Part shown: positions 5,472 to 55,143 of the stretch, piece by piece
Layout of the letters: every line of letters begins with the position of its first letter
How positions within the stretch are numbered: the first letter of the stretch is position 1
DNA from: a virus
Length of the DNA: 64,000 nucleotides
Direction: 5' to 3' (one strand)
IMG/VR virus record: IMGVR_UViG_3300013117_000371
The notes under the pieces: generated by a model
Databases searched by the model: none
What the model was told of the DNA's origin: nothing
The model's input: only the letters and a program-made list of their open reading frames with translations
Program-made: the position numbers and the translations under genes

Positions 5472-6815
5472 TCAATTACTGGAGCCAACGCTCCGTACAC
5501 TGCGGGGGTTCTGCCACTGAAACTCAAAACAGCCACGGTCCATCTCCCGCCCACTAATCGGATTGTAATCGAGATCGTGGTCTCGCCCTGTAGCCCACAG
5601 CCCCGTATCCACACAGGGGCTATCCCCCCGCAAATGATAGTCATCCCCGGAAGCATCCACAAACAGCGGATCTACAGACAGATCTGAGGCGTCCACGGGC
5701 CAATTGCCCGAGTAATCACCATTGGCGGCGCAGTTATTAAGACTGACTGCCACAGCACCCACTCCGCACGAGAACTCGTCAGTAGTGCCTCCATCCGAAA
5801 TGCAGTTTTGAACGGTGCGTCCTCCTGCTACGGGAACGTCCCCGATATAGAATCCCCGGGAGCCGCCGACCATAGTGCAGTTCTCAATGGTGCTGTCCGG
5901 AGCCGCCGGGTCTACGAGTGTGCCTCCTATTTCAATCCCCCGGTCTACCGCTCCCACGGAAACGAAATCGTATGCCGACAGGTTGCTGAAATGAACACTG
6001 CGGCCATACGCCCCGAATCCAATGGTACGCCCATCCGCTGTGAGGCCATGCACGGTGCTGTCTGAGATCGTGCCGTACTCGCCGGGCATAGCTGCCCAGG
6101 GCCCTGTGAAATAGATGCCGTAAACGCGGTCCTCGGCGTACGAATTGCGGGCGATGCAGCCCCTTACCGTAGGGGCGACAGTCGTGGAATTGGCGTAGAT
6201 CAAAAAGGCATCTTTCCCCGCCCCGGTGATGGAGGCCCCCTCAACAATCGACAGCTCAATCACGGTGGAGGTGCTGCCCTCACATCTGATCCCGTACCAG
6301 TTCTGGTTGGTGGGGTCTACCGGGGAGTCCACCAGAACTTGCCTGATCGTGTTGCCCGTCCCTGTAATCACCAGAGTGGACTGGCCAACACCGACGGCCC
6401 CGTTGGCAGTCATCCTCAATCCGGCGAAGGTGTTCCCCGTACCCCCCACGGTGAAGGGCGTGGCTCCAATGTAGCCCGTCACCGTCAGCCGCCCTGTGGT
6501 GCTCTGAACGTCCACGTCCCATGTATTCGCTCCCGCTCCCCATGCCATGCAAGTGGCGGTCGCCCCCGTCCCATCGAGCGTGTAGTCCGCACCATAGTGA
6601 CGCCAGGTGATACCGGTGACGCCCACCGGGGTAGTGAGAGACTGGTTCAATTCAGTATAGGGGCCGTACGTCTCTACCGTGTCCCCGTTCACCAGCGCCG
6701 CAAAGCAAGTAGCAAGCGAGGTGTAGTCCTTCCCGGCTCCGACTGTGCGGGTAAGGGCGGCTGCTGATACAGGCAGCAGACAGAGAAACAAGAGTAAGAT
6801 TACCGTCCGTCTCAT
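5472..6815 (-). CDS. signal-peptide, right-handed parallel beta-helix (pectin lyase-like) protein with choice-of-anchor-Q-like C-terminus
   Basis: MRRTVILLLFLCLLPVSAAA signal; RTVGAGKDY start; repeated I.N.T/S strands; DPLFVD...DYHLRGDSPCVDTG. Confidence 0.75.
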   Translation of the reverse strand: MRRTVILLLFLCLLPVSAAALTRTVGAGKDYTSLATCFAALVNGDTVETYGPYTELNQSLTTPVGVTGITWRHYGADYTLDGTGATATCMAWGAGANTWDVDVQSTTGRLTVTGYIGATPFTVGGTGNTFAGLRMTANGAVGVGQSTLVITGTGNTIRQVLVDSPVDPTNQNWYGIRCEGSTSTVIELSIVEGASITGAGKDAFLIYANSTTVAPTVRGCIARNSYAEDRVYGIYFTGPWAAMPGEYGTISDSTVHGLTADGRTIGFGAYGRSVHFSNLSAYDFVSVGAVDRGIEIGGTLVDPAAPDSTIENCTMVGGSRGFYIGDVPVAGGRTVQNCISDGGTTDEFSCGVGAVAVSLNNCAANGDYSGNWPVDASDLSVDPLFVDASGDDYHLRGDSPCVDTGLWATGRDHDLDYNPISGREMDRGCFEFQWQNPRSVRSVGSSN

Positions 6816-9503: not shown

Positions 9504-10332
9504 GTTGGGCCTCCGTAATGTCTGCCAGCATGGCAATGCCGCGAGTGAGCCCGGATATGGACTCGAGTTCAGTATAGGGCACCGCTTCGATCCGCTCCCG
9601 CGTGGGCTTGACCAGCTGTACCCGGGCAATGAGTTTGCGTATCACATCCATTGGGCCCAGTTGCTCATTGGCCGCAGTGAAGATGTGCATCCACCGCTTC
9701 GCCGCCGCCGAGCCGGCGATCGCATCCCGGGTGACCACCGCCTCCCGGTACTTGGCCGCCGCCGCTGCCCGCATGAACTTCAACTCCTCCTCCTTGTCGA
9801 TGTCCACTACCGCTCCGGAGTAGAGCAGGGCCACCTGATGCCCCATGCTGTAAAGGACTCGGTAAGTAGTCCCCGCCCGATGTAGCTCAAACAGCATGTC
9901 CAGTTCCCATCTGGAGAGGGACTTCAAGTCCCAAACCAGGTGGGAGTACATCCGGATAACCGACTCGGGGATGACCTTGCGGTGCAGCTCCATGACAGCG
10001 TTGCTGACCAACTGGTGATTGCCGTCTGCGGCGAGCAGGGACTCCACCGCAAACCGGAGCTCCCCCGAGTCCACAACGGCGCGGACCGTGCCGCACATGG
10101 CATCGTCGTGCCATACCCTGGACAAGAGGTTGTTGGCCACGAAATTGCTGACCGTTCGATCGTTGGTCAGGGGCTGTTGCACCCTTACATACAGGTCCTT
10201 AACATACCTCTCCAAGGCCTCTGACGGGTCGGTCTCCACGTACCCCAACTGCGCCAGGACGCGTAGGACATACTTCTGCGTCATCCCCTTCAGGAATAGG
10301 AGCAGAAGGTACCGTTCGCAGGGCAACTTCAT
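9472..10332 (-). CDS. hypothetical protein
   Basis: 286-aa helical ORF, ATGA-type coupling to upstream gene. Confidence 0.75.
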   Translation of the reverse strand: MKLPCERYLLLLFLKGMTQKYVLRVLAQLGYVETDPSEALERYVKDLYVRVQQPLTNDRTVSNFVANNLLSRVWHDDAMCGTVRAVVDSGELRFAVESLLAADGNHQLVSNAVMELHRKVIPESVIRMYSHLVWDLKSLSRWELDMLFELHRAGTTYRVLYSMGHQVALLYSGAVVDIDKEEELKFMRAAAAAKYREAVVTRDAIAGSAAAKRWMHIFTAANEQLGPMDVIRKLIARVQLVKPTRERIEAVPYTELESISGLTRGIAMLADITEAQRAKEDAESSP

Positions 10333-12299
10333 GCTTGGCCGGCCCCCATACTATCCAGCTGGGTCAACTGGTCGGCTACCTTCTGCACGTTCTTGGTCGC
10401 CAAGAACGCGGTATCGGGGTCGACCGGCTCTAGCCCGATCTGCGCCGCCAAGGTGAGCTTGGCTAAGCTGTCAGCCAAAGCATACAAGGCAGGCAGCTGC
10501 TTGACAAACATGTCCAAAGTCTCACTCCCCATCAACTGGAGGGCCATCAGCTCGTCCTGCTGCTGGGGAAGCGCCGCCGCCAACTTGAGGAAACCCAAGT
10601 CCACGTCGTACTCAGTGTTCACCGTAGCCAAAGTCCTGGTCACCAGGAGGTCCTGCGGCCCCCTCCTGGAAGCCGCCACCTTCTGTAAAGCAGTGGGCTC
10701 GCCCACCCCCAGGGCCCCCAGGATGAACACAGCGTCGGGCAGGGATACAGCCTGCTTCTCCAGCGGCTCCCCTTCCCACTCGGCGTGCTCCACAGGCATT
10801 CCGGAAAGCGAGTAACCCAAGTGGTTCCTGGTCACGGTCACCCGCCTGGTGGGGAAGGAGCGGGACGCTACCTTCTCCAGGCTCATGTCGAAGTAGGACG
10901 CATCCTCCGTTACAAAGAATACCTGGGCGTCCTTGGGCAGGTACAATCGCCCGCTAAGCAGCAGCGGCTTCACCACCGTGGAGGAAATAACCACATCGGC
11001 CGCTTGCTCCGGGTGGTCCATGATCGAGTGCGTGGAAAAGTGGCGGCCCAGGTAAACCCGTCCCTTCTTGATCACGCCCAGCGGGCGGTAGATGGTGTTC
11101 TTTCCGGCAACCACCACCATCTTCTTGCCGGGGTGCCGCCACATGTCCTCCACCGAAGTCATCTTGATCGCCGGAGCCCGCCCTTTTACGTACTTGGTGG
11201 TGGGGTGCTCAGTCAACCTGTAAATCACCCCCTTGCTGGAGGTCGCCACGAGCCGTTCGGGGTCGTCGTCGCCCCACCCGATTTGCTTGAGCACCCGCAT
11301 GTTGAACTTGTTGCCGTTCTGGGAAGCTTTGATGCCCATCCCAGGCCTCAACTCACCTCGTTCGTACAGCGTCACAGTCCTTGCGGCCTGCTTCTCCAAC
11401 TCGAACACGCCGGGGTCCCTGACGATGGTGGCGAAGGGCTTACGGGAGAAGGCGTCCATCACCGCAGCCGGCACTTTACCTACCGGCAACTCCCGCACGG
11501 CGGGGCGGAAATCGCCGGCGTACGCTGTTTTCTCCATCACCCCAAACGGCACCCGCTCAAACTGCACTACCTCCTCCGGCACGGCGAGCAAGTCGCTCAC
11601 TTTGCGGCCGAAAGGGGTACCACTGAGGTAATCCAACAAGGACGCTTGCTTGGGGAGCTCCCCCAACACGGCCCGGCGGGAGTTGTTGGCCGAGTTGTCG
11701 ATGTTGCCGCCGTCCGGGCCCTTGGCGATGTTCTCCTGGTCCGGGGCGGTCTGCTGAGTCGGCATCAATTTCTTATTGGAGGAGGCGCCGATCACCGGCG
11801 CCGGCGCCCCAACCAGGTGGGAAAAGCCCATCTCCGTAGTAGGTATGGCGTAGTACTCACCGTCTATGGCGACCGCCACAGGGGGCTCCAGGGTGCCGTC
11901 GTTCACCACGAAGGGCACCGCCACGTTGCGCTGCTGGGGAGTAGCAATCATCACGCTGCCGACAATGATGTTCCCCTCGTCCTTGTCAATGCGGGGCTCC
12001 ATAGGCAACTGCGAGAGGTAGTCGAACTCGTTGACCACGGCCTCCAACGCTGCGGCCATGACAGCGTTGTGGTCCCGCATGTTCAGCGTCATCCGGCGGT
12101 TGGGGAAGGCGCCGACCTTGGGGCCTACCCATGGTTGCTGCCCCTGCTGGTGTTGGGGAACACCCGCCTGGCCCGGGGGTACCAGGCCAGCGTCCATAGG
12201 CGGCGAGGCGGGGGCCGCCAGGTCCGCCGAAGGCTGCGGTTGCTGCACGTCGGCCCTCTTCTCCATCCCCGGGTTCAGTTCCTCGAATACATGCTCCAT
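10329..12299 (-). CDS. large putative head/prohead protein with many (E)KxA motifs
   Basis: MEKRA, PKQA, MEKTA, LEKQA, LEKVA, LEKQA, QKVA, LKLA, QKVA; Q/P-rich N-terminus. Confidence 0.65.
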   Translation of the reverse strand: MEHVFEELNPGMEKRADVQQPQPSADLAAPASPPMDAGLVPPGQAGVPQHQQGQQPWVGPKVGAFPNRRMTLNMRDHNAVMAAALEAVVNEFDYLSQLPMEPRIDKDEGNIIVGSVMIATPQQRNVAVPFVVNDGTLEPPVAVAIDGEYYAIPTTEMGFSHLVGAPAPVIGASSNKKLMPTQQTAPDQENIAKGPDGGNIDNSANNSRRAVLGELPKQASLLDYLSGTPFGRKVSDLLAVPEEVVQFERVPFGVMEKTAYAGDFRPAVRELPVGKVPAAVMDAFSRKPFATIVRDPGVFELEKQAARTVTLYERGELRPGMGIKASQNGNKFNMRVLKQIGWGDDDPERLVATSSKGVIYRLTEHPTTKYVKGRAPAIKMTSVEDMWRHPGKKMVVVAGKNTIYRPLGVIKKGRVYLGRHFSTHSIMDHPEQAADVVISSTVVKPLLLSGRLYLPKDAQVFFVTEDASYFDMSLEKVASRSFPTRRVTVTRNHLGYSLSGMPVEHAEWEGEPLEKQAVSLPDAVFILGALGVGEPTALQKVAASRRGPQDLLVTRTLATVNTEYDVDLGFLKLAAALPQQQDELMALQLMGSETLDMFVKQLPALYALADSLAKLTLAAQIGLEPVDPDTAFLATKNVQKVADQLTQLDSMGAGQA

Positions 12300-12680: not shown

Positions 12681-13655
12681 TTACACCTGCACTTTGAAAT
12701 TCAGCACACCAGGGAAGGTCAACAAACAGGAGGGGTTGATCGTCCCGGCCGGGGTGACCAGAAAGTCGGTTGTCAACCACTGCATGAACTTGACCCCGTC
12801 AATGACGAACCCGTCCTCCTCAGTCAGTATCAGCCGCTGCGTATCGAAACGAATTTCAGGCGCCTCAAAGGTCACCGAGAGCTTGGCGTACCAGTACACG
12901 GTCTTCAAGGTGTTAATATCTACCGCCTCAGTCTCCAGCGTCATGGAGTCCTTAAAGGTGCCGAAAGTGTGTCCTTCTACATCGGTGTAGCTGTCCCCCT
13001 TGACCGAAACCCCCCGCGTCTGGGCCTCCTCCGAGTAACTGCCGTCAGCCGCAATTTCGGCGTGGAAAGCCCCGCACACGACGCTCGAGTACACGGCTCC
13101 CCCCTCCCCTGCCCAGTCCTTGACTCCGAAGTCCTTGCCGGTGCTCCCAAACCGCATGTGGAGGGTAGACTCACCTAAGTCGTGACCAACCACGAAGTCC
13201 AACACCGCATCCTTCCAGGACATCTTCCCCTGCGGCGTAACCAGCTCGTAATTGCTGGTGAGGATCTGCACTAAGTCCTGACTGGGCACTAAGTAAATGG
13301 ACGCGGTGGCTTTGCTATACAACTCGATACGCCCGTTCTTGCGGAGCACTATGCGACTGCCCAGGGGGAGCACCCACCCATGGTCGCCGGGATCAAGGTC
13401 AGTGTTCATCGTGCCTTCATGGTCCCGCGGCTGCAGCAGGAACCATTGCTCAGCTGACTCGGAAGTCCTCAACGCCAACCAAGGCTCGCCCTCTTCCGGC
13501 ATGGCTCCGGAGGCCTTCCCCCCCTTGAACGCATTGAGGCGCACATCCGGGATGATAACCGGGTCCTTGGCCGTGCCGTAGTCCAAACGGACAGTGGCCA
13601 GCTTATTCTCCGGGTCCACCGAAACAATAGTGACTTCTCTTATTTCTGCAGCCAT
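12681..13655 (-). CDS. baseplate hub/spike protein (gpV/gp5-like OB-fold plus beta repeats)
   Basis: TIVSVDPENKLATVRLD N-terminus; P.EGE..L motif; C-terminal V.GD...V.G repeats. Confidence 0.6.
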   Translation of the reverse strand: MAAEIREVTIVSVDPENKLATVRLDYGTAKDPVIIPDVRLNAFKGGKASGAMPEEGEPWLALRTSESAEQWFLLQPRDHEGTMNTDLDPGDHGWVLPLGSRIVLRKNGRIELYSKATASIYLVPSQDLVQILTSNYELVTPQGKMSWKDAVLDFVVGHDLGESTLHMRFGSTGKDFGVKDWAGEGGAVYSSVVCGAFHAEIAADGSYSEEAQTRGVSVKGDSYTDVEGHTFGTFKDSMTLETEAVDINTLKTVYWYAKLSVTFEAPEIRFDTQRLILTEEDGFVIDGVKFMQWLTTDFLVTPAGTINPSCLLTFPGVLNFKVQV

Positions 13656-13663
13656 TGGAAACC

Positions 13664-16600
13664 TCAGTACCCGGGCCTACCTTCTCGCTTGGGCTTGCCG
13701 AACTCCGCCCCGCTCAACCAGGCAGGGACAGGGTGCAGCCCATGAACTTCAGCCCTCTCCCCGGTCGCCCCGGCCCTGATGAGGGTCTGTTTGACGCCCC
13801 GATAACCGAGGGACTCCAACCAGGTATCTCGATGCTGCGGCAACGCCGTCACCCCCTTCAACACAGGAGTTACCCTCAACGAGTTGTCGTGGGAGCGATT
13901 CCAAGCCCGGGCTTGGTAGTAGGGGATATACTCCCCCTTGATCTTATTGGAAGAGCCGGGGTCGTCCACCACCGCTAAGTTGGTAACGGCCCTGACCAAC
14001 ACTTCCACGTTCCGGGGGTCGATGCCATACTTGCCGTAGACAGCCATCAAGCTGTCCGCCATCGACCGCTGAGCGGCTGGTAAGCTCTTGGTCACGGCAA
14101 GCACCTCCCTCGGGTCCACCAAACCGGTAGTGAGGGCCTCCCCCAACTTCACGGACTGACCCCGTTTGACCACAACCGCGCGGCCCACCGGAGCGAAGTA
14201 CTTCCCCTTCCCTTTACTCCCCGTTACATGCACGTATGTGCCGTCGGGGACCTTCTCAACCGAGGCCACCTTCCCCGCCAAATGGGAAAGAGTGGCCTTA
14301 CCAGGCAAGTTCTGGGGCAAACGGAGAAGGTTGGTAACCTGGTCCAGGGGGGGGAGCTCCCCGAAGCCGCCGAGGTGAAAGCTGCGAAGCGTCAATTGGG
14401 TTCCCCGCTCCCCCAGGGCCTGGGCGGCCTTGATACCGACGTTGTCCCCCAACTGGGCCGGCCCATGCTCAGTCTGCCCGAAACACCTGGCGCAGATCCC
14501 TTCCCCGTTGCGGCAGCTCAGGGGGGAACGTACCCTTACCTGCTTTACTCCCTTGCGCCGGAAAATATCTACCTCGGCTGGAGTGATGATAGTGCCTGCT
14601 CTGACCCCCGCGGTGCTTTCCCCCAGCACTCTGTCCACGGCATCGGACACCGGGCGTACGCTGCCGGTGCTCCCACAATCACGGGTGGCGATGACCGAGC
14701 TCATGGTGGCGGCCAACATCTGCTTGGTGATGTCTCCAGGGATGCGTACGGACCGCACGGACTGCACCACTGCTTTGCGGGCCGTCGGCGCCGTGGACCA
14801 GTAGTCCATACTGTTCATTCCCTCGGCGTACCCCCTCCTCACCGGCACGAGGTTGCCCTCCCCCCAGTCTCCAAACAGGGGAGAAAGCAGCATTTGCTGC
14901 AAATTTGCCTTGGCCGGTTTCAACCCCGCCCGATTCATCCGGGTAAACGTGCTCCCGGGGGGGTATTGCTGTCTCTCCAGGGCTCTTCCCACGTCCCGCA
15001 CAGCTTTTTCCTTGTTTTTCGCCCCCTCCAACTGCCTCAAGTACCTCCGGCGCTCAGCCCTCAATGGCGTCAAATCCCCCAAGGACACCGACAGGCCTGA
15101 ACGGTAGGAGTATTCGAAGCCCAAATTCTTCAAGCCGTCCATGACCGCCCCGTAACGGGCGGGCGAGACCACCCCCAAGGTCTCTGCGAGGGCTTGGAGG
15201 CGCTTTTTGTCCAACTGGGGAGCGCCAACAGCCAAAAAACTCGCCATTTCGGGAGGTAAGAGGCCTTGAATCATGCTCCGGCCGAGGGTGGTCTCCTTCC
15301 CTGCCACCCGAATGCGGTCCGTGACCCCGATCTCCCCTCTTTTTTGGGCAGCAATGGCCTTTTTGAGGTCCCCGAAGCCCTTTTTTGCCTTTTTTCCCCT
15401 CACCGCAGTCATGTCGAAAAGCCCCATCAGCGCTTCATGGGTCGGAGTGTACAGGTAATCGCCGCTGGAGGGACTCCTGAGCAGCCTCGAGGGCATGCTG
15501 CGCTTGGCTTCGATGACCGCTTCGTCGGAAACGGGGACGAAGAGAGAGCAGGTGTCCCCGTCGAAGTCCGCGTTGTACACGCTGGTCACCAGGGGGTGTA
15601 ATTCAATGACGTTTTCGTTGGTCGGGCGGGGAAAGAAGGCCATAACGCCGAACTTGTGAAGCACCGGGTCCCGCTTCAGCCACACCGGGCGGTCAGCAAT
15701 AGCCCGTTTCAGGGCGGCTTCAACCAGGGGGTCCTCAGGACGGTCCTCGGTGAGCTTCTTAGCTACCAAAGGGGTTAATCCCAAAGTAGCAAGCTCTCGG
15801 ACAATGAAGGGCTGGTACATCTCCCGCAGCATCTCCCGCGGAACTCCTACCTCATCCAGGTGCAAACCGGGCCCGGGGACAATCACGGCTCTCCCGGACA
15901 AGTCCTGCCGACGCCGCATGATGTTGCGGTGGACCATGCCCAACTTCACCGAGCCGGTCCCGTGCAGCTGCTGAAAGATGCCCTTGGCTTCCCTGTAGTG
16001 TTCCGTCTTGCCTAAACCGAACAGGGCGGCTACGTCGGCGTAAAGCTTACCCCGGGCGTTTCTCCCCTCCTCGAAAGCCATGAGCTCAGGGGTTTCCTTT
16101 TTCAACCCCTTAAGTGAGTTGCCAGTGGCAATAAGGTCGCCGTACAGGAGGTTCAGGTCCGAAATAATCAGCCGCCCCTTCATAGAGGTAACCGGCCGAA
16201 AGACCGGGGGTATCACAGGGACGTTGCGGAGCATGTATACGTCCGCTCCCTCGCCCAGCTCATCCAGAGCCCGGAGGAACCTCTGACGTAGGGGGTCGCC
16301 TCCCTTGCTCAGCTCCTTTCGGACGTCCAATTCCCTAAGGGCCTTACCTAACGTGGTGTTGCCCGGCCCATCTACCGCCGTGTACTTCCCGTCCTCGTAC
16401 TGAAGGCCCTTTTGCCCGCTGCCCACAGCGATAACGTGCGCACGGGTCAAGCCCAAGATCTTGGAGATGGGGGAAATGAACACTGGGTTGGGGACTTCGT
16501 AAGGGAGACGAATATGGCCCCAGCCCGAGCCGTCCAAACCACCCGTAATCTTCGAGTCGAAGAGCTCCCCCGCCTTTGCCTTGCCGGTCTTGCCGGAGAA

Positions 16601-19600
16601 CATGGTGGGCTTGGTCAATTCACCGTTGGAACGAGCCAGGATCTCCTTATTGGTCATGGGTAAGAGCCACATCTCGTCCCCTTCCCTCTCCAGCTTCAAC
16701 CCGGCCGCATTCAGGTAGGCTTCGAACTTGTGGTACACCTTGGGGACCCGAGGAGGGGGTAGGGTTTGCCCCAGTTGAATGGCGGTCCACACTGCATCGT
16801 TGTCCTTGTCACCACGATAGCTGAGCACCTCACGCATGTTCTCGCCAGCACCGTGTGCAAGTAGGGCCATGGCCATCCCCCGGTCGGCAGACTGGGCTTT
16901 CCCTACTTCGCCTTCTCCGGCCTCCCCACCTTTTACCGGGGTACCTTCAGCGGAGTACGCGTAGGGGTAGCCGGCACCTCGAGCATTCATCTTGTGCTCG
17001 GCCTGGTGGATGAGCTTCAGCAAGTACTGGTACCCCACCAGGACGTCCCCCACCTTCTTGCCGTCAACGAAGACCTCCTCTGTGTCGGACATCCCGTTCT
17101 TCTTCAGGAGCTCCGCCACTTCCTCAACGAAGTCCCGCTCGTAGCTGTAAGCTTCGATGTGCTTCTTGATCGGCCTGCGCTCCTCCCCCCTCCCAACCCA
17201 GTAGGTGCGCTCATGCGCCGGGACATCAACAATACGGACACCTCCGGAGAAGCTGCTGACCGCAATGGGGTGCCCTTTCTTCTTGGCAACTTTGCCTACC
17301 AGAGTCTCGTACATCTGGGAGGGATTTGTACGCCCCCCGATTCCGACAGGATTAAGCAAGACATCAAGCGGTCTCCCGTCCCTGGTGGTGGGCATCTCCG
17401 AATCCGGTTTGATCTTTCCGCATACGCCCTTGTTGCCATGCCGGCCACTGAGCTTGTCGCCCAGCTTGGCCACCTCTTCCACCGCCACAGCGATGTAGTA
17501 CCCATCCGGCGTCTTCTCCACCTCTTGCACGATTCCGGGGGTCTGCCGATCCCACACCACCGAGGCGTCTCTGAGCGTCTCCATCCCCAACTTCTTGCCC
17601 AGTAGGCGCTCCTCTTTGGACATGGCCTGCTTCTTCACCCCGGCCACCAGGATTTGCCCCTCTCGGACCAAAGTACCTGGCTTTACCACCCCATCCTCCA
17701 ACGTCGCCCGCTCCTCCACCGACAGCGGCCGTACAGTGCGGGAGAACAACGCGGCGTCCACCTCAGCGTCTTCGCTATAGTGCTTCTGCACAATAGCTGT
17801 AGAAGTGAGCTTGGCGGCAAAGGACTCGCTGATGGTGATGGCGTCCTCGAAGTTGAACCCGTCGGCCATGTAGCCTACCCGGGCGTTCACCCCCATGGCG
17901 ATGAGCCCGTCCCGAGTAGTGTTGGCCTCTGTGAGGCGGTCGCCCTTCTTGACCTTGTCCCCCTTCTTCACTACGGGCTCGTGGTGCTCCACCGATCGGC
18001 CGTCGTTCAAGGGGAACATATGGGGGATGAAGACCTTGTGCTTCCGCCCGTCCTCCCCGTTCACCAGAATGCGGTCTTTGTTCACGGAAACCACGGTTCC
18101 GTTCACGGGAGAGCGCATCACCACCATGTCTCCAATTACTCGCTCCACTATTCGACCGTTGTCCGTGGCCGTCAGTACTAGCGGAACCTCCCGGTCCCGC
18201 AAGGCAATAGCGGAAGTCAAATGACGGTACACCATCTCCAAGCGGTTGGGGGAGGTGGCAGTGGCAAACGGGGTGGACAGGGTCACCTCTGAGAAAGTAG
18301 TAGCCGGGTCGATAACGTACTTCACGCTCCCGGCCGGCACTTCGACTACCTTGCCGCCCTTGATGGCCCGTACGTTCCGCCCAGCCTTCTTTGCCTGAGC
18401 ATACTCATCAGTGAGCGCGTACGGGGTATTGAGCAGCTCCCGCACCGTGAACGTGTGGGGCTGGCCCGTCTTCACTTCGCGTACCCTGAGAGCAGGCTCC
18501 CGGTTCTTCACCGTACCACCGATAGAAAGGGGGTACACCGCCCCCGCTTTCTCACTCTCCGGCGTCACCACCGGGTCGATGACGCCCACAAACGTGGGGT
18601 AGACGGAGCGGGCCGCCTCAGTGATGGCGTCGGGGTTGGAGATGCCCCCCTCCCCCATGATGCTGACCCGGCCCACTGCGCCCAATTCCGCATAGGGGTT
18701 GGTCTGCGGCGCCCGGTCGGCCAGGCCGGCGGAGGTGAAAATGCTCCACACCGACTTGTCGTACGGGGAGGACCCACCCATGATAGCCGTCACATCGTCA
18801 CTTTTGGCCATTCGGTACTTGAGCTTCCCGGTCACTCCCGCTCGGCTGATCCGCTCATGCACGAACGCAGGCATGTTCATGAACCAACGGTACTCCAACG
18901 AGTCTCTCCGGTCCGGTGTGTCCTTCCCCCGCACCACGTTCAGCAACTTCCGAGAAGAGAGGAGCATCACCTGGGAGGAGACCTTGGTAGTCTTCAACCC
19001 AATAGTCTTCTCCGGCACTTCAGGAGTGCTCATCTCCATGGCGGAGAACATCTCCCGGACCAACAGGGGGGCCCCGCTCTCGTTGGAGTCCACCCCCGCC
19101 GCTGCCAGCAACCGGACCAACTTGGGCTTAGTCGCTGCATTCTTTTGGAGCACTTCTGCACCCCAGGCGGACCGCATGTCACCGTCATCCACCCCCAAGG
19201 CCTTCATGACATGGTAAAGAGGGACATTGGTGTCCCCGTACTTCAAGGTGTAGAGCTGCCGCTCCGGGCTGTACAGGACCTCAAAGTTCCTCCCCCGGGA
19301 GAGGTTGAAAGAGGCAACGGTATCCCCTGTCTGCTTGCGGTGAATAAACACCCCCGGCTTCAGCCGGTTCTGAGTAATGGGGTAGTACTCACTGTTATTG
19401 ACGATGTAGCTCCACCTGGAAGTAGGCACGGGCACATTCACCAAGCGCAGCCGTTGCTTGTCTACAAGCCTCCCCTCTTCATACAGCGCCACGGTCCCCC
19501 GAATACCTACGCCCCACTTCTTCCCCTGCACCCGAGCAGCTTTCTGGGCGCTGACATCAGTGGGGTCCTTGGGGGTTTCCACCTCTACTTCGGACAGCCG

Positions 19601-19702
19601 CAACTCCCTCTTCCCGTACTTGACCGGGAACTGCCCCTCAAGGGCGCGCATGGCAGCGTTCAAGTTCTCCGAGTAGTCCCGGGGGAGCGTCCTGTCCGGC
19701 AT
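13664..19702 (-). CDS. rpoBC: DNA-directed RNA polymerase, fused beta-beta' single chain
   Basis: beta: GDKLSGRHGNKGV, LLNPVG, YLLKLIHQAEHKMNAR; beta': GHIRL, IPPVFRP, SGRAVIVPG, RDPVLH, catalytic NADFDGD (15554-15574), RSPLSC..C..CFG, AAQALGERGTQLTLRSFHLGG. Confidence 0.95.
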   Translation of the reverse strand: MPDRTLPRDYSENLNAAMRALEGQFPVKYGKRELRLSEVEVETPKDPTDVSAQKAARVQGKKWGVGIRGTVALYEEGRLVDKQRLRLVNVPVPTSRWSYIVNNSEYYPITQNRLKPGVFIHRKQTGDTVASFNLSRGRNFEVLYSPERQLYTLKYGDTNVPLYHVMKALGVDDGDMRSAWGAEVLQKNAATKPKLVRLLAAAGVDSNESGAPLLVREMFSAMEMSTPEVPEKTIGLKTTKVSSQVMLLSSRKLLNVVRGKDTPDRRDSLEYRWFMNMPAFVHERISRAGVTGKLKYRMAKSDDVTAIMGGSSPYDKSVWSIFTSAGLADRAPQTNPYAELGAVGRVSIMGEGGISNPDAITEAARSVYPTFVGVIDPVVTPESEKAGAVYPLSIGGTVKNREPALRVREVKTGQPHTFTVRELLNTPYALTDEYAQAKKAGRNVRAIKGGKVVEVPAGSVKYVIDPATTFSEVTLSTPFATATSPNRLEMVYRHLTSAIALRDREVPLVLTATDNGRIVERVIGDMVVMRSPVNGTVVSVNKDRILVNGEDGRKHKVFIPHMFPLNDGRSVEHHEPVVKKGDKVKKGDRLTEANTTRDGLIAMGVNARVGYMADGFNFEDAITISESFAAKLTSTAIVQKHYSEDAEVDAALFSRTVRPLSVEERATLEDGVVKPGTLVREGQILVAGVKKQAMSKEERLLGKKLGMETLRDASVVWDRQTPGIVQEVEKTPDGYYIAVAVEEVAKLGDKLSGRHGNKGVCGKIKPDSEMPTTRDGRPLDVLLNPVGIGGRTNPSQMYETLVGKVAKKKGHPIAVSSFSGGVRIVDVPAHERTYWVGRGEERRPIKKHIEAYSYERDFVEEVAELLKKNGMSDTEEVFVDGKKVGDVLVGYQYLLKLIHQAEHKMNARGAGYPYAYSAEGTPVKGGEAGEGEVGKAQSADRGMAMALLAHGAGENMREVLSYRGDKDNDAVWTAIQLGQTLPPPRVPKVYHKFEAYLNAAGLKLEREGDEMWLLPMTNKEILARSNGELTKPTMFSGKTGKAKAGELFDSKITGGLDGSGWGHIRLPYEVPNPVFISPISKILGLTRAHVIAVGSGQKGLQYEDGKYTAVDGPGNTTLGKALRELDVRKELSKGGDPLRQRFLRALDELGEGADVYMLRNVPVIPPVFRPVTSMKGRLIISDLNLLYGDLIATGNSLKGLKKETPELMAFEEGRNARGKLYADVAALFGLGKTEHYREAKGIFQQLHGTGSVKLGMVHRNIMRRRQDLSGRAVIVPGPGLHLDEVGVPREMLREMYQPFIVRELATLGLTPLVAKKLTEDRPEDPLVEAALKRAIADRPVWLKRDPVLHKFGVMAFFPRPTNENVIELHPLVTSVYNADFDGDTCSLFVPVSDEAVIEAKRSMPSRLLRSPSSGDYLYTPTHEALMGLFDMTAVRGKKAKKGFGDLKKAIAAQKRGEIGVTDRIRVAGKETTLGRSMIQGLLPPEMASFLAVGAPQLDKKRLQALAETLGVVSPARYGAVMDGLKNLGFEYSYRSGLSVSLGDLTPLRAERRRYLRQLEGAKNKEKAVRDVGRALERQQYPPGSTFTRMNRAGLKPAKANLQQMLLSPLFGDWGEGNLVPVRRGYAEGMNSMDYWSTAPTARKAVVQSVRSVRIPGDITKQMLAATMSSVIATRDCGSTGSVRPVSDAVDRVLGESTAGVRAGTIITPAEVDIFRRKGVKQVRVRSPLSCRNGEGICARCFGQTEHGPAQLGDNVGIKAAQALGERGTQLTLRSFHLGGFGELPPLDQVTNLLRLPQNLPGKATLSHLAGKVASVEKVPDGTYVHVTGSKGKGKYFAPVGRAVVVKRGQSVKLGEALTTGLVDPREVLAVTKSLPAAQRSMADSLMAVYGKYGIDPRNVEVLVRAVTNLAVVDDPGSSNKIKGEYIPYYQARAWNRSHDNSLRVTPVLKGVTALPQHRDTWLESLGYRGVKQTLIRAGATGERAEVHGLHPVPAWLSGAEFGKPKREGRPGY

Positions 19703-19866
19703 CGGTTCCCTCCACTAGTCCGTAGTCTAACCTACCCGGCGCTAAAAAGAAAGAAGCGTAGCAAAGGGCAGCCAAATCCCGCTATAAGAACAATGTACAG
19801 TGCCGAGAAAAACACCAGGCACTGTGGAATTGGGGAGAAAACCGCATAAGACAGGAGGTAGACAAT

Positions 19867-20967
19867 GTGGCACTAGACATCACAAGTGTGACTCGCCAGG
19901 TAGCACATCGGCTTGACGAGACACAACTCGACGGGAGGGTGATCGGAGGAAGGGGCGGATTCTCCCGATTCTTCCGAGACCACCTGCCAGAGGGGATGGT
20001 CCTCATCTCCAACGCCCAATCCATAAAGCTCTTTGAAGCCCACTACGGAAAGGCCCCCTGGGAAGCCTATGGCTGGGGGAAGGAAGAAGTGGGGCGGAGC
20101 GAAGCCGGGCGGGCAGTACTGAAAGAAGTTGAGGACACCGGAGTCATCCCCTACATGTTGGCCTGGGAGTACATCGTACCCCCGGATTGCGAAGTCACCC
20201 TGGTCAACGCCGAAACCGTAAGTAACTCATTCTTCGGTGCAAGTTTCAAATCGGCCATCCACCTCGTTGGGGACCCGTTCCGATCCCCAAGGCCGGGGGC
20301 GATGTCGAATCTGCTCATGAACGCCGCAGAGAACGAGGTCTCTCTGCCTTTCACGATCGTGCGGAATCTACGAGAGCTGGGGTTCCACCCGGACCAGTGG
20401 CTGCCGATAGATGAGGATATCATCCAAGTGGTGGACGCCATCGAGGAGGATGCCCGAATGATTACGGTCGTCGTGCCAACTTGGGCAGATATGGAGTTGA
20501 TTGATTGGGCAACGCCCAATCGCTTCCCCAAAGATGACTTTGGGGTGTTTGCCACTACCGTGGCGGACATAGCACGGCATGGCCCCAACCGAGCTTACGG
20601 GCTCATCCTGGAAGCCTGCCAAACGAAGTTCACTCGGGAACGGTATCTCCGGAGAGGCACGCCGGAAAAGACCGCTGAGGAACTCGCCAAGTGTGACTAC
20701 GTGTCGGACTTTGCCAAGGACACGGTACCCATGGATGTGCTGGAAAAGGACCTCAATGCCGTATGGTCCCCCACCGGCCTGAATTACCCCCGTGGGAGCG
20801 ACCGCCGCATCATGACGGTCTACACACTGAACGACACCGACTGGGTTGTGCTGCTCCCGCCCCCAGCCTGGTGGAAAGATCACGAGAGGGCATGGTACCT
20901 GTACCGTGCCGCCACGTCCGCAAGGGAGGGCATACTTGTCGTGGACGAGGAGGAGGAAGGGTTCTGA
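19867..20967 (+). CDS. RecD/Dda-like SF1 helicase homolog with degenerate Walker motifs
   Basis: LVGDPFRSP (motif III-like); C-terminal TVYTLNDTDWVV and YLYRAATSARE (motif V/VI-like); no GKT or DE motif. Confidence 0.55.
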   Translation: MALDITSVTRQVAHRLDETQLDGRVIGGRGGFSRFFRDHLPEGMVLISNAQSIKLFEAHYGKAPWEAYGWGKEEVGRSEAGRAVLKEVEDTGVIPYMLAWEYIVPPDCEVTLVNAETVSNSFFGASFKSAIHLVGDPFRSPRPGAMSNLLMNAAENEVSLPFTIVRNLRELGFHPDQWLPIDEDIIQVVDAIEEDARMITVVVPTWADMELIDWATPNRFPKDDFGVFATTVADIARHGPNRAYGLILEACQTKFTRERYLRRGTPEKTAEELAKCDYVSDFAKDTVPMDVLEKDLNAVWSPTGLNYPRGSDRRIMTVYTLNDTDWVVLLPPPAWWKDHERAWYLYRAATSAREGILVVDEEEEGF

Positions 20968-21052: not shown

Positions 21053-21154
21053 ATGTTCAACGCTGTTCTACTGGGGCTGGAGGTGGGCTGGGAGCTGTGG
21101 GAGCTAATCGACGGGTTTCTGGACCCGGAAGGTGAAATTCCACTGTTCGGCTGA
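21053..21154 (+). CDS. 33-aa small protein
   Basis: Read manually: MFNAVLLGLEVGWELWELIDGFLDPEGEIPLFG; GAGG RBS. Confidence 0.5.
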   Translation: MFNAVLLGLEVGWELWELIDGFLDPEGEIPLFG

Positions 21155-21162
21155 CTTCCGGC

Positions 21163-21210
21163 AAAGGGAGGGGGACGGTTCTGGGGACCGTCCCCCTTTC
21201 CCCCTTTTTT
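21163..21210 (+). terminator. intrinsic terminator between convergent genes
   Basis: GGGGGACGGT/ACCGTCCCCC stem followed by a pyrimidine run and T6. Confidence 0.7.
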
Positions 21211-23146
21211 AGCTGTACCCCGCTCTGCGTGGCGGGAGCTGCTCAGGGAGGGGCCTTTCAATGACCGGCTGCATGGGGTTGAATTGCTCCATCAGCGCCC
21301 GGTGCATATCAATGTTCTTGTTGGCGATGTCCTGCAACACCATAGCCCGCTGCAAGGGGGACTGATGCTTCAGCGCCATGCTGATCTTGTGTACTGCCCC
21401 CGGGTCCACACCTTCGGGAGGCACCATAGCGAGTATCTCCGGCGTTCCCATCACCCCGTGCGTTCCCGACAACTGGTCGGGGGGAGGCGCTAAGGGGGAT
21501 TCCCCCGGTTGAGCCTCCTGGCCGGGTTGAGGCTGTCCCTCTCCAGGGGCTCCTCCCGGCGGTGCTTCCTGGCCAGGTTGAGGCTGCCCAGGTTGAGGCT
21601 GCCCCGGTGGAGGGCCGAGCCCCAATTCCTCCTGCAACCGCTGAATCGCCGCCTGGTTGCGCACTCGCATCTTCTGCTCCTCGAGTTGTGCTTCCCAAAC
21701 GGCCTCACTGTCAAGGCCCATTCGCTCGTGCACCACCCGGTACGCCAGGCCGCCCTGGGCCGCCATGCCGCTCAGGATGGAGAGCTTCTGGACCTCGTCC
21801 CCGGACATGATGGGTTGGAGGAAGACCTCGTTGGGCAGCCCCCAGCCCAGAATGGAGGCGCACTTCTTCATCACGAACCGAATGAACCGCTTGTGCAAGT
21901 GCATCAACGCTATGAACTCGGTGTCCAATGCCCGCAGAGAATGGGAAGCGCCCGACCACGACTTGCCGCCCCACACGAACTCGACCGGTGTGCGCGCTCC
22001 AATGAGGATACGCTCCATCAGCAACCTGACCTGCTGGTCAGGCATGAGCAGGCGATTGGGGTCCCCGAACTGGAGCAGCTGCGACGGGATGGGGGAAATG
22101 GCCACCGAGGCCGGGTCCTGCTCCCAAGTCTCCAGCTGGCTGCGCATCTTGTCCATCCACATCTTTGCGGCGCCGGACAGGTTCACACTGTGCCCAGCAT
22201 CTCCGGAAGCGGCCGGGGTGATCATCCGGAAAGGGATGAGCTGAGTCATCACCAGCGCCTCCTCCGCTTTCAAAACAATCTTCATATGGAAGCAGTCAGG
22301 CAACGTCCCGGCCAACGTCGGCCAGGGCCACCCTTCCCTGGTCTGCACGGACTTCTTGTAGGTGGAAGGAGTCAGCGCTGTTTCCTCAAAGATGAACACC
22401 TGGTCATTGAACAGGTTCATCTTCTTATTACGGAGGATGGCCTCAACAAACTCCTGCGGGGTGTCGGCAATGGCCTCCCGCTTCCCTAACTTGACCTGGT
22501 TCCGAAACTCTTTGGAGAAATCCACCTGGTACTTAGGCTGCAACGAGAAGCCGACGCGCCTCACCGACAGCTCAAAGGGGTCCCACCGCCGTAGGGTGAT
22601 GCGATTCCCCGCCTTGATGTAGAAATCCCTGACCACTGCTCGTTGGTAGCTCTTGCAGACCACACAACGCACCCGGAAGGACTTGTCCCACGGGTCCACC
22701 TTGAACTTGGCGATCTTGGCTAAGTGAGGCTTCCCGCACTTCTTGCAGAGGAAGTACTTGTTGAACGGGGCGATCACCGACACTGCAGCGTGCCCGTACA
22801 CATAGAGGTCAAGGTTGATCTGCACCCGCAACGCCTGAATATCCAAAAACTCCGTCAGGAGCTCCACCCAGTCGTCTATTTCAGACTCCCGAAGCCCGCC
22901 CCGCAAAGTGAGATCGGTAACCGGGTACAATGCTTTGCGGACAATGGCAGCATTGAGTAGGGGGTTGAAGATGGCGAAGTAGGCGCACCACCGCCATACC
23001 TCATGGAGGGTGTCGGGGAGTACTGTACTGGCGTAATCCAAAAAAGGCGACGGGGGCTTGCTCAACGTCAGCCGGGACCGATCGTAAGCGGCCAGTTTGG
23101 AAGGCGGCCGCCTCTGCGGCAACGATTTGACTCTGCCTTCACCCAC
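21209..23146 (-). CDS. putative portal protein with Zn-ribbon insertion and PGQPQ-repeat tail
   Basis: WRWCAYFAIFNPLLNAAI..YP N-terminal pattern typical of large-phage portals; CKKC...CVVC; RILIGARTP; low-complexity P/G/Q C-terminus. Confidence 0.65.
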   Translation of the reverse strand: MGEGRVKSLPQRRPPSKLAAYDRSRLTLSKPPSPFLDYASTVLPDTLHEVWRWCAYFAIFNPLLNAAIVRKALYPVTDLTLRGGLRESEIDDWVELLTEFLDIQALRVQINLDLYVYGHAAVSVIAPFNKYFLCKKCGKPHLAKIAKFKVDPWDKSFRVRCVVCKSYQRAVVRDFYIKAGNRITLRRWDPFELSVRRVGFSLQPKYQVDFSKEFRNQVKLGKREAIADTPQEFVEAILRNKKMNLFNDQVFIFEETALTPSTYKKSVQTREGWPWPTLAGTLPDCFHMKIVLKAEEALVMTQLIPFRMITPAASGDAGHSVNLSGAAKMWMDKMRSQLETWEQDPASVAISPIPSQLLQFGDPNRLLMPDQQVRLLMERILIGARTPVEFVWGGKSWSGASHSLRALDTEFIALMHLHKRFIRFVMKKCASILGWGLPNEVFLQPIMSGDEVQKLSILSGMAAQGGLAYRVVHERMGLDSEAVWEAQLEEQKMRVRNQAAIQRLQEELGLGPPPGQPQPGQPQPGQEAPPGGAPGEGQPQPGQEAQPGESPLAPPPDQLSGTHGVMGTPEILAMVPPEGVDPGAVHKISMALKHQSPLQRAMVLQDIANKNIDMHRALMEQFNPMQPVIERPLPEQLPPRRAGYS

Positions 23147-24427: not shown

Positions 24428-25378
24428 CTACTCCTCCATGATAGTTGTGAGCACCCTACGGTGCTCACGGCTCAGGATTCCTATGTTCCCCGTGGCTACG
24501 GCGTTGCGCACGGTGGCGCCCATCACCGCCGCCACTTTCTCCAAGGTGTCTTCAGGGACCTCCTCTTTGGGCGGCACCTCCCGGTGACCGAACGTGGTCA
24601 AGAAAGCGTCCGGGTGCCCCTTCAAGCACACCTCCTGGTCCAACTGGTCCAACATACTGGCGTGCTTCTCCAAGTCCTGCTCTCCCAGGATGGTGTCAAA
24701 AAGGCTCAGCGCATCCGGCCGATGGGCCTCTAAGAACGCACGGCGCCGATCGAGCAGGAACTGGCGACTGGTGTTCTCATCTACGGCAGCGTACTTGCTC
24801 AATGGGTCGGGGGCCTCTACTCCGTGCATCAGCAGCTGCAAAGCCACCGACCGCCTCTCGCAGGGGCGCAAAGCGCCTATCTGGCCGGCCAAGCTAGCGG
24901 CTAGCTTCTCCAGTTGGTCTCTTGAGTCAAAGCCGACGTTGGCCCCCCGCACCACGATGAAGTTTTTCGGCTGAGGCCGAGCCTTTGGCTCTCGTACCTC
25001 GTCAAACTCCGCTGAGGCAGTCTTGGAAAGGTCGGCCCCGCCCTTCACTTTGAGCCCGAACTTCCTCAACGCCGTCAAGAGTCGAGCGCTGACCTCATCC
25101 CTGACTTCTTCGGGGAGCTTCTTGCCCGTGTGTAGGAAATAGAACATGGAAACCAAGGCGTTGGCCTGGTCCGAAATCGGGTAGTACCTTCCCACAACCT
25201 TGCCTTTCTGTTTCCGCACCAGGGCGAACTCCTGGTCGGGGAACTTCTTATGGTCCGCCTTGTCTACCCGCACCCCCTTAGAGATCCCACGAGCGGCGAC
25301 CTTGGCAAGTTCCCTTCCCTCACCCACAGTCTGGGCCAAGAACTCACCGCCGTCATCGTAATAATCCAACTGTATCAT
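24428..25378 (-). CDS. (E)KxA-motif protein with DUF6582-like segment
   Basis: Start MIQLDYYDDGG behind GGAGG; PDQEFAL...RYYPISD..NA...YF...ARL..ALRKFG; KVA, KTA, EKLA, EKHA, EKVA. Confidence 0.6.
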   Translation of the reverse strand: MIQLDYYDDGGEFLAQTVGEGRELAKVAARGISKGVRVDKADHKKFPDQEFALVRKQKGKVVGRYYPISDQANALVSMFYFLHTGKKLPEEVRDEVSARLLTALRKFGLKVKGGADLSKTASAEFDEVREPKARPQPKNFIVVRGANVGFDSRDQLEKLAASLAGQIGALRPCERRSVALQLLMHGVEAPDPLSKYAAVDENTSRQFLLDRRRAFLEAHRPDALSLFDTILGEQDLEKHASMLDQLDQEVCLKGHPDAFLTTFGHREVPPKEEVPEDTLEKVAAVMGATVRNAVATGNIGILSREHRRVLTTIMEE

Positions 25379-25418
25379 GTAGCGCCTCCGCCGAGCGGGG
25401 TTGCCTTTCTCACCCCCC

Positions 25419-25456
25419 ATAATACCCGGTTAAATCAAGCCGTCAAGAAATCGCAA
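25419..25456 (-). promoter_or_regulatory. sigma70-like promoter copy 1 (TTGACG-N16-TATTAT)
   Basis: Within a 35-bp repeat duplicated at 25625-25659. Confidence 0.6.
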
Positions 25457-48337: not shown

Positions 48338-49045
48338 GTGCGAACGTGTAGCTGGGAAGGACTCATTGCTGCGTGCCGGGAACAGTTCGGGGGGCCAACT
48401 AAGGCCCGTTTTGAACGCACCGGGAAGCAGGTGAAGGTGACCGGCGCAACCCGTCCCAGCTACCGCCCTCCCACGAAGTGGGTGGGTGTCCCTCATTACC
48501 CGGTTGGTCACCACGCCCTTGTGGGCAACCTTACTGAGGTAGCAATTGCCCTGGAGGGGCTGTGCCACATGCCGCAGGTGTACGTTGTGTTCAAGGGGCT
48601 CCCCCTTGCCCTGGTCTGTATGATGATTGGGGCCGACTACTGTAGCGGCGTGTACCTCCGGGCGGCTGATAACCTGCCTTTGTTTCTCGGGCATATCTTC
48701 CGCACCAAGGGCGTGTGGCACACGATGCCCCCCTTCCCTGTTACCCTGCGGCAGCTGAAGGACGAATACCCCATTATGGAACGGCCCCACTTGGAGTGGA
48801 AATGGGCCGTAGAGAAATTGCAGGCAGACCTGGCGGACAAATTGATGACTACCAGGACCCCTTATTTCTACCCTATCGACGAACTCCGGCGACGGGAACG
48901 GTCGGCGATGGCTTTGCAAGGCCTGCGCCTCGTCCAGGCCCGCTGCCTCGTCGGCACCCCCGGCCAGCACCTGAGTGAGTTGTCCAAGCTTACTCAGCTG
49001 ACACAGGAGGAGCAATGGGCGCTAGCATTGAACTCCAGGCCGTAA
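48338..49045 (+). CDS. hypothetical protein
   Basis: GTG start just after upstream stop. Confidence 0.6.
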   Translation: MRTCSWEGLIAACREQFGGPTKARFERTGKQVKVTGATRPSYRPPTKWVGVPHYPVGHHALVGNLTEVAIALEGLCHMPQVYVVFKGLPLALVCMMIGADYCSGVYLRAADNLPLFLGHIFRTKGVWHTMPPFPVTLRQLKDEYPIMERPHLEWKWAVEKLQADLADKLMTTRTPYFYPIDELRRRERSAMALQGLRLVQARCLVGTPGQHLSELSKLTQLTQEEQWALALNSRP

Positions 49046-54170: not shown

Positions 54171-54547
54171 AAGCGCAACGACGGAGGTTTTGCCACCCCA
54201 TCTTTGAGGAGACAGACGACCTGGACGGGTTCGTGCAGACATTGGTGCGGGTGTTTCGGAGGTATGACAAGGCTGGTACGCTTCCGTCGGGGCTCACTGT
54301 CTCCCAAAACGAACGGGGGCGTTTCTGGCTGGTAAGCGCCGACGCCCCCCAACGCATTGGGAGTTGGGTAGCCCTGGACCTGGACGAGTTGGGGCCGCCA
54401 CCCAACTGCCTGTGGATCGGCTACAGCCGGGAGAAGAGGGAGTACGCCGTAGTAGCAGCGGTTTCGCAGGAAGGGAAGCCCGGAATCGTACTTCAGTACA
54501 CTCAGTCGCTCGGGGGAATCTGCTATAAGAACGGTGGAGTGAATTAG
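54167..54547 (+). CDS. hypothetical protein
   Basis: ATGA coupling to polA. Confidence 0.65.
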   Translation: MKAQRRRFCHPIFEETDDLDGFVQTLVRVFRRYDKAGTLPSGLTVSQNERGRFWLVSADAPQRIGSWVALDLDELGPPPNCLWIGYSREKREYAVVAAVSQEGKPGIVLQYTQSLGGICYKNGGVN

Positions 54548-54617
54548 TCCGGGGAAACCCCTACTCCGGGCTCAGGAACTTGTTCCGCCTGAGGGGAGGT
54601 GGAAGGAGGCCATTGAT

Positions 54618-55082: not shown

Positions 55083-55143
55083 GACGGCCTAGTGTTTGGA
55101 AGGAACTGGGGGGTCCGGAAACGGGCCCCCCACAGGAGATTCG

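Follow-up and report, generated by a model that had tools for sequence, protein, structure and literature searches.

Can a phage encode the whole catalytic core of a bacterial-type RNA polymerase as a single polypeptide, and what would it use such an enzyme for? This question is raised by one gene in the IMG/VR virus record IMGVR_UViG_3300013117_000371, of which a stretch of 64,000 nucleotides (nt), here called the window, was analysed. A sequence-only reading of the window had described the gene as one uninterrupted open reading frame (ORF) of 2012 codons, in which motifs of the beta subunit (RpoB) are followed by motifs of the beta-prime subunit (RpoC). The frame was confirmed, and every motif quoted in that description could be located. 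The ORF is a phage-specific, bacterial-type polymerase catalytic core in one polypeptide, and consists of a complete beta joined to a nearly complete beta-prime. Both its fold and its full set of catalytic residues correspond to those of an active two-barrel enzyme.

A complete beta joined to a nearly complete beta-prime

The polymerase ORF (Table 1) starts with ATG, has zero internal stops across its 2012 codons, and carries a GGAGGG ribosome-binding site 6 nt ahead of the start codon. The G+C content is even over the gene and its surroundings. In Pfam terms, the domain order runs from Rpb2_3 and Rpb2_6 in the first half to Rpb1_1, Rpb1_2, Rpb1_3, and Rpb1_5 in the second. When the protein is compared with solved structures by phmmer, residues 297–1004 match Thermus beta 360–1099 (expectation value (E) 1e-60), and residues 1138–1990 match Thermus beta-prime from bacterial residue ~220 onward (E 4e-91). 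Among the quoted motifs, HKMNAR occupies residues 903–908, PKVYHKFEAYLNAAG residues 987–1001, and KITGGLDGSGWGHIRL residues 1051–1066. Residues D1379, D1381, and D1383 of the Mg-binding motif, as well as K750 and K758 of the beta active-site motif, are invariant in an alignment of 84 sequences, and the cysteines of the distal zinc site are nearly invariant among these homologues.

The passage from RpoB to RpoC, which had been put near position 16690, was placed by alignment at nt ~16678. There, in the structure model, only a two-residue turn separates the last strand of beta (GLKLERE, 1002–1007) from the strand with which beta-prime begins (EMWLLPM, 1010–1015). All 84 aligned homologues cross the junction without a linker or gap, and this conserved, ungapped fusion bears out the claim of a true single chain. 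In bacteria, the C-terminus of beta and the N-terminus of beta-prime stop at the same aligned positions, with only tails between them.

The structure was modelled with AlphaFold2 (AF2) as two overlapping pieces (residues 1–1150 and 1001–2012), folded with a 38-sequence family alignment. The mean predicted local distance difference test (pLDDT) score is 82 for the first piece and 84 for the second. In Foldseek searches, the beta piece superposes on full-length bacterial beta chains of 1040–1190 residues with template modelling (TM) scores of 0.63–0.71; against solved bacterial enzymes, the score is 0.64 by query and 0.68 by target. The beta-prime piece, compared with full-length, insertion-poor beta-prime chains of Firmicutes, scores 0.85 by query and 0.73–0.77 by target.

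These superpositions bear on the description of the enzyme as compact and minimal. It is shorter than the E. coli enzyme, but ‘minimal’ is overstated, since both halves superpose on full-length bacterial subunits. Segments of at least 12 residues that are absent from the phage chain were mapped by MAFFT against Salmonella, in E. coli numbering. The shortfall relative to E. coli is ~740 residues, of which ~470 belong to four Salmonella/E. coli insertions: beta 220–331, 938–1049, and 1124–1177, and beta-prime 946–1137. We take beta 220–331 and 938–1049 to correspond to E. coli SI1 and SI2, respectively, and beta-prime 946–1137 to the trigger-loop insertion SI3. Compactness relative to E. coli is therefore mostly the absence of lineage-specific E. 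coli insertions. Other segments that are absent relative to Salmonella are the first ~17 residues of beta-prime, beta-prime 68–99, a few short loops, and the C-terminal tail. Relative to Bacillus, sizeable differences are limited to a 93-residue lobe insertion in beta and the beta-prime 65–96 segment.

The sole conserved bacterial element that is absent is the N-terminal zinc ribbon of beta-prime. The E. coli zinc-ribbon cysteines C70, C72, C85, and C88 have no counterpart; this region of the phage protein is free of cysteine, and the whole polymerase contains only six. The deletion is common to all fused homologues shown, and also to the polymerases of two cultured phages, Arash (on Salmonella) and D69 (on Vibrio). 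The sequence-only reading had the zinc-binding clamp domain of beta-prime missing. The zinc ribbon and the first ~17 residues are indeed gone, but the rest of the clamp is present, including the clamp helices. In the alignment, these helices and a recognisable flap-tip helix are retained, though diverged.

A family of phages with fused polymerases

Fusion is the normal state in a large family of uncultured phages of ~180–200 kb. A metagenomic protein search in which 8000 candidates were scored gave 743 protein clusters at E<=0.001. The best 120 of these 743 all carry both Rpb2 and Rpb1 domains and are mostly 1990–2170 amino acids (aa) long, and fused-polymerase clusters come from contigs of up to ~210 kb. 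In IMG/VR, a profile scan found at least 492 related loci, many as a single ~6.1-kb match spanning residues 1–2012, unlike a single-sequence scan of viral contigs, which gave no match. Some members already bear automatic JGI names that label them beta/beta-prime. The closest relative (L003), from a hydrocarbon metagenome, is 65% identical and retains synteny across the entire neighbourhood. By comparison, no close relative was found in a scan of 185,579 prokaryote species (one genome each), where the best matches were ordinary rpoB–rpoC genes at 25–31% identity.

The polymerases of many relatives (P0002, P0005, P0013, P0019, P0032, P0039, and P0041) are interrupted by LAGLIDADG inteins. In window numbering, these sit at residues ~752–760 (GDK..GNKG), 963, 1383 (the end of NADFDGD), 1741 (the zinc site), and 1777 (FHxGG), mostly inside catalytic motifs of the longer family members. 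The window copy is intein-free.

The relationship of these proteins to cellular polymerases was addressed with a tree built from 48 sequences, either fused or concatenated (LG+G4 over 1970 columns, with a quick search in IQ-TREE), with support given by the Shimodaira–Hasegawa-like approximate likelihood-ratio test (SH-aLRT). Twenty-three bacteria from many phyla form one group (SH-aLRT 100), and 22 fused phage proteins, including that of the window, form one clade (96). Arash and D69 are sister to the fused clade (99), and the Cobetia phage Carin-5, which has separate subunits, stands alone on a long branch. The tree is unrooted, has several rows of deviant composition, and holds no archaeal, eukaryotic, Helicobacter, or Wolbachia sequences, nor any from the mReC phages discussed below; it consequently settles non-bacterial placement, not deep origin. 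With the window protein placed in the fused-phage clade outside the 23 bacteria, and with phage genes on its flanks, the comparison indicates that the gene is phage-encoded, not bacterial, as had been claimed. In Carin-5 (L011), a sigma factor, beta (1084 aa), and beta-prime (927 aa) are encoded by three adjacent genes.

The cultured phages Arash and D69 show a variant of the same arrangement. Arash Gp206 (1525 aa) aligns with window residues 2–1471, straight through the junction, and thus comprises beta and the first half of beta-prime, while Gp216 aligns with residues 1472–2002. The cut in both phages falls at window residue 1470/1471, in a variable loop that matches E. coli beta-prime 555–571, and the C-terminal part is a separate gene 0.6–4.8 kb away. 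In the Vibrio phages D148 and D181, homing endonucleases lie near the split polymerase genes. The publication on Arash annotates Gp206 as ‘subunit beta’, with no remark on the fusion (PMC10585845).

The gene neighbourhood

The polymerase gene was said to lie between portal and baseplate genes, and this description holds: a portal homologue is found upstream, and a gpV/VgrG-like hub gene follows 8 nt downstream (Table 1). The portal candidate matches Arash Gp204 (E 9e-35) and its D69 counterpart (E 3e-38) in BLASTP, and it or a homologue precedes the polymerase not only in the window but also in three other fused-type contigs (L003, L095, and L096), in D69, and in Arash. The label ‘portal’ comes from this homology, Gp204 being annotated as a portal; the protein has no Pfam or PHROG match of its own, and a six-sequence profile found nothing in the PDB. 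The family of this putative portal has four invariant cysteines (C134, C137, C161, and C164), which suggests a zinc-ribbon insertion at residues 134–164. When all window proteins were compared with the Arash and D69 regions by BLAST, only the polymerase and the portal gave matches.

The hub/spike-like protein was recognised from Atlas features (0.96, 198 shared) and from structural similarity to Phage_base_V/VgrG clusters (TM 0.53–0.64), and in L003 and L097 a homologue is encoded immediately after the polymerase. The helicase-like gene on the opposite strand has a weaker likeness (Atlas features 0.88, structure TM ~0.5) and is conserved in L003 and the P0006 contig. In Arash, the DNA helicase Gp217, whose gene adjoins that of the C-terminal polymerase part, is abundant in particles; no sequence similarity was found between it and the helicase-like gene of the window. 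Between the convergent helicase-like and portal genes lies a strong 16-bp G+C-rich hairpin followed by T6 (21166–21200). A 33-codon ORF (21054–21155, + strand) just before the hairpin has a 34-aa counterpart at the same place in L003.

Because the opposite-strand gene and the hairpin separate the portal from the polymerase, the latter has its own upstream region of ~290 bp, and it heads a unit that runs into the baseplate hub gene. A sigma-70 consensus scan of this upstream region gave background level only, with no site. A hunt for promoter motifs was equally empty: the 9-mer AGGTTACTG occurs four times, always outside called genes, yet when a single mismatch is tolerated its frequency does not exceed chance, and the flanking sequences do not align.

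Table 1. Coordinates of the fused polymerase, its functional sites, and adjacent features in the window
Feature	Position	Strand	Basis
Fused beta–beta-prime RNA polymerase, 2012 aa	13664..19702	-	Single ORF, Pfam and phmmer matches; stop codon 13664–13666
Beta module, residues 1–1008 (protrusion/lobe, fork, flap, catalytic barrel, C-terminal clamp part)	16679..19702	-	AF2 and phmmer
Beta-prime module, residues 1009–2012, without N-terminal zinc ribbon	13667..16678	-	AF2 and phmmer
Fusion junction EREG/DEMWLLP, residue ~1008, nt ~16678	16658..16690	-	Ungapped in 84 homologues; AF2 strands
Beta active-site motif GDKLSGRHGNKG, residues 748–759 (GDK..GRHGNKG type)	17426..17461	-	K750 and K758 invariant, 84 homologues
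Catalytic Mg-binding NADFDGD, residues 1377–1383	15554..15574	-	D1379, D1381, D1383 invariant, 84 homologues
Distal beta-prime zinc site C1676, C1730, C1737, C1740	14483..14677	-	Aligns with E. coli C814/C888/C895/C898
Beta-prime zinc-ribbon site (E. coli 68–99), replaced by LDGSG	16505..16552	-	32-residue deletion
Rifampicin-pocket region, cluster I equivalent	18653..18742	-	Q513 to D329, F514 to R330, D516 to P332, H526 to A342; against Salmonella, Bacillus, and Kocuria beta
Putative portal, 645 aa, upstream of polymerase	21209..23146	-	Homology to Arash Gp204 and D69 counterpart
Superfamily 1 (SF1)/UvrD-helicase-like gene, 323 aa (Atlas start) or 366 aa (first GTG)	19996..20967	+	Between portal and polymerase; lead only
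Divergent intergenic region ~290 bp upstream of polymerase, presumed promoter region	19703..19995	.	
Baseplate hub/central-spike-like protein, 324 aa (gpV/gp5/VgrG type)	12681..13655	-	8 nt after polymerase stop, same orientation

Two further proteins of this arm share a short motif. The 656-aa protein encoded two genes downstream of the polymerase (10329–12299, - strand) has seven [LMV][EQ]KxA sites, five of them of the strict form [LM]EKxA. Three LEKxA sites occur in the 330-aa protein whose gene opens the portal operon (24428–25420, - strand). Such sites in virion proteins fit a protease-site or packaging code. Also on the minus strand, a 447-aa protein (5472–6815) has a weak match to Disaggr_assoc/DUF5123 (beta-helix, pectate-lyase-like) and is a candidate tail fibre or depolymerase. 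The other arm carries a replication module (49015–56783, + strand) with a DnaB-like helicase, a Toprim primase, a family A DNA polymerase with 3'-5' exonuclease, and a RecA/KaiC-like ATPase. A 921-aa superfamily 2 (SF2) helicase (ResIII/DEAD; 44683–47448, + strand) is split by an intein with a LAGLIDADG endonuclease domain, and an AAA ATPase is encoded at 59804–61231.

A proposed polymerase without alpha or omega

Cellular RNA polymerases need an alpha dimer, or its archaeal or eukaryotic equivalents, to join the two large subunits. In the phage enzyme, the covalent link would do the work of assembly that otherwise falls to the alpha dimer and omega, and the core would be a single chain; the balance of probability lies modestly on the side of this proposal. 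The window was said to hold no alpha, omega, or sigma gene, and indeed none of these families was matched among the 51 ORFs scanned with Pfam (six called ORFs lay outside the scan). Searches of complete or near-complete genomes point the same way for alpha and omega. Arash and D69 gave no match to PF01000, PF01193, or PF01192 at E<=1, and five genomes with fused polymerases (91–100% complete by CheckV) gave none to PF01000 or PF01192. The alpha and omega models were positive in 14 of 14 control genomes.

Sigma factors present a different picture. Divergent sigma sequences were found in six of the seven relatives that are complete or nearly so (at least 91%, CheckV). Sigma70_r2 has two matches in Arash and one in D69, Sigma70_r3 has matches in four of the five fused-type genomes, and Arash Gp10 and the candidates in two fused-type genomes have in common a Sigma70_r3 and a weak r2 signature. 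These matches support the view that the polymerase lineage uses sigma-like factors encoded elsewhere in the genome. Promoter recognition would be given by a divergent phage factor of the sigma-70 family, which is fairly probable. Of the two sigma-70-like frames in Arash, one is Gp10, which is found in particles, and the other lies in a 380-aa frame (~120974–121165); the presence of two hints at a sigma switch on a single polymerase.

The rifampicin pocket has also changed. Three main rifampicin contact residues are replaced in the alignment (Table 1); substitutions at E. coli D516, H526, and Q513 are established causes of rifampicin resistance. Since the classic resistance positions are substituted, the polymerase is predicted, and indeed likely, to be insensitive to rifampicin. 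The polymerases of phages phiKZ and AR9 are resistant to the drug.

The third element of the proposal concerns timing. The gene may be co-transcribed with tail genes, which would mean late expression. The enzyme would be made late together with the virion proteins, packaged, and injected with the DNA, and it would then transcribe the early genes independently of the host polymerase. In the Arash virion proteome, determined by mass spectrometry, Gp206 accounts for 3516 spectra and 128 unique peptides, the highest of all proteins and above the major capsid protein, and Gp216 for 1210 spectra; the sigma-like Gp10 is also in the particles, as is the annotated portal Gp204, with 32 peptides (PMC10585845). 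Read together with the gene order, these data tilt the assessment somewhat towards late synthesis, packaging, and injection. The cautious suggestions of the sequence-only reading, possible alpha independence and possible packaging, thus agree with indirect evidence from relatives.

Overall, a one-chain phage polymerase core as proposed is the best explanation of the locus, and is held with moderate confidence. The most specific form of the proposal is put forward tentatively, at slightly under an even chance: a one-chain core without alpha or omega, packaged possibly with its own sigma factor (Gp10 in Arash), and injected to run a host-independent, rifampicin-insensitive early programme.

Several points weigh against this proposal. 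The enzyme might still recruit alpha from the host, the residues of the clamp helices have diverged strongly, and the functional points rest on relatives that are only ~28% identical to the window enzyme. The polymerase has no copy of the strict [LM]EKxA motif of the neighbouring virion-arm proteins. If the motif is a packaging tag, the polymerase is without it; if it is a protease site, its absence merely leaves the chain whole. The Arash particle preparation contained 116 of 272 proteins, including ribonucleotide reductases and kinases, and its authors allow for co-purified intracellular enzymes (PMC10585845). Finally, a single polymerase set was found per genome in Arash and D69, so the enzyme has either to transcribe the later genes as well or to give way to the host polymerase.

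The last three of these points speak for the strongest rival, in which the polymerase is not a virion protein. It would be made after infection and transcribe middle and late genes only, its portal/baseplate neighbourhood would be historical, and the signal in Arash particles would be carry-over of the kind that its authors caution about, given the many clearly non-structural enzymes in the preparation. One polymerase set per relative's genome would suit this rival; phages of the phiKZ type, by contrast, have a virion enzyme and a distinct non-virion one. Against it, Gp206 tops the Arash proteins in spectra, the linkage of portal and polymerase is kept across family members that are only 28–35% identical, and the gene is co-oriented with the nearby hub gene. 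A polymerase confined to the infected cell is therefore considered unlikely, though it is the most probable of the alternatives.

Slightly less probable again is a hybrid enzyme, in which the fused chain needs a host alpha dimer, and perhaps omega, for its assembly or for its response to activators. Both halves keep the overall architecture of bacterial subunits that bind alpha, and a phage that draws alpha and omega from its host would be just as likely to have no genes for them. However, phiKZ and AR9 have multisubunit polymerases that function with neither alpha nor omega (PMC7598289; PMC13282480), and a packaged hybrid would need host alpha to be carried in the particle. In addition, the C-terminal region of beta-prime is remodelled and shortened relative to bacteria, which may be connected with omega binding.

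Bacterial origin, a host island, a pseudogene, and an inactive structural protein were each considered and set aside, as they disagree with the tree, with the synteny, and with the invariance of the catalytic residues. That the gene is an assembly artefact, or a captured bacterial rpoB–rpoC pair read through via a sequencing error, is a general possibility of negligible probability, effectively refuted by an ungapped junction that recurs in 84 aligned homologues of independent sample origin and in hundreds of others, by a clade separate from 23 bacteria of many phyla, and by even G+C and flanking phage genes syntenic with those of the 65%-identical relative.

Comparison with known polymerases

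Phage-encoded polymerases of cellular type are already known, whereas a large fused family with a portal-side layout is apparently undescribed. No description of this fused phage family was found in the literature, including a word check of a 2026 jumbo-phage review. If the proposed one-chain mechanism is true, the enzyme would be the simplest self-sufficient bacterial-type transcription machine known, and it would define an undescribed family comprising hundreds of ~190-kb phages in which fusion is the usual condition, rather than the split seen in the cultured members Arash and D69. Such an enzyme would allow a clean examination of what alpha, omega, and the beta-prime zinc ribbon are needed for, and synthetic biology would gain a candidate orthogonal transcription module of ‘one gene plus one sigma’. 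The enzyme would also represent a third route to phage independence from the host polymerase, beside the fragmented enzymes of phiKZ and AR9 and the minimal ones of crAss-like phages and P23-45. The phylogenetic position of the family bears on the debate over ‘deep-branching’ phage polymerases. Because the family has cultured members, the mechanism is directly testable.

Fusion of the two large subunits has a cellular precedent. Helicobacter and Wolbachia have natural rpoB–rpoC fusions, in which the C-terminus of beta is joined to the N-terminus of beta-prime, the two lying side by side in the enzyme. The fused enzymes of these bacteria are of the ordinary cellular kind: they retain the zinc ribbon and have alpha and omega as partners. 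The order and logic of the fusion are the same in the window protein, which differs in having no zinc ribbon and in its position outside the clade of 23 bacteria (a sample that includes neither of the two genera).

The mReC phages, with which the sequence-only reading had compared the gene, are uncultured tailed phages whose beta and beta-prime can be aligned with, and resemble, those of bacteria, and branch outside the cellular clades. The likeness does not extend to the fusion. All entries in the mReC table are two separate proteins of roughly 900–1560 aa each, and fusion is mentioned for crAssphage only (Weinheimer & Aylward 2020, PMC7481178). The mReC set thus does not describe the fused form, since only two-gene polymerases are listed, in contrast to the one fused gene in the window; the comparison was made by table and text, with mReC sequences outside the tree.

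In gp66 of crAss-like phages and the tape-measure-fused RNA polymerase of Thermus phage P23-45, both barrels are likewise in one polypeptide, which is carried in the virion (PMC10770324). Those proteins are minimal and extremely diverged, with little recognisable beyond DxDxD. The window protein, in contrast, matches Pfam Rpb1 and Rpb2 and superposes on whole bacterial subunits.

The two-barrel polymerases of phiKZ and AR9 resemble the proposed enzyme in working without alpha or omega, and one set of them is packaged and starts early transcription (PMC7598289). They consist of four or five polypeptides, with beta and beta-prime each divided into at least two, are far more diverged, and have no sigma-70-type factor; the same jumbo-phage overview describes fragmented enzymes without sigma (PMC7598289). 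The window, on the other hand, encodes one chain of near-bacterial architecture, and sigma-like genes occur in its relatives.

The closest parallel is offered by Arash and D69, which form the sister clade. In both, the same junction links beta to beta-prime, the zinc ribbon is deleted, the portal gene precedes that of the polymerase, there are sigma-like genes, and no alpha or omega was found. Their polymerases are ~28% identical to that of the window, and differ in that their chain is cut once, whereas the window enzyme is whole.

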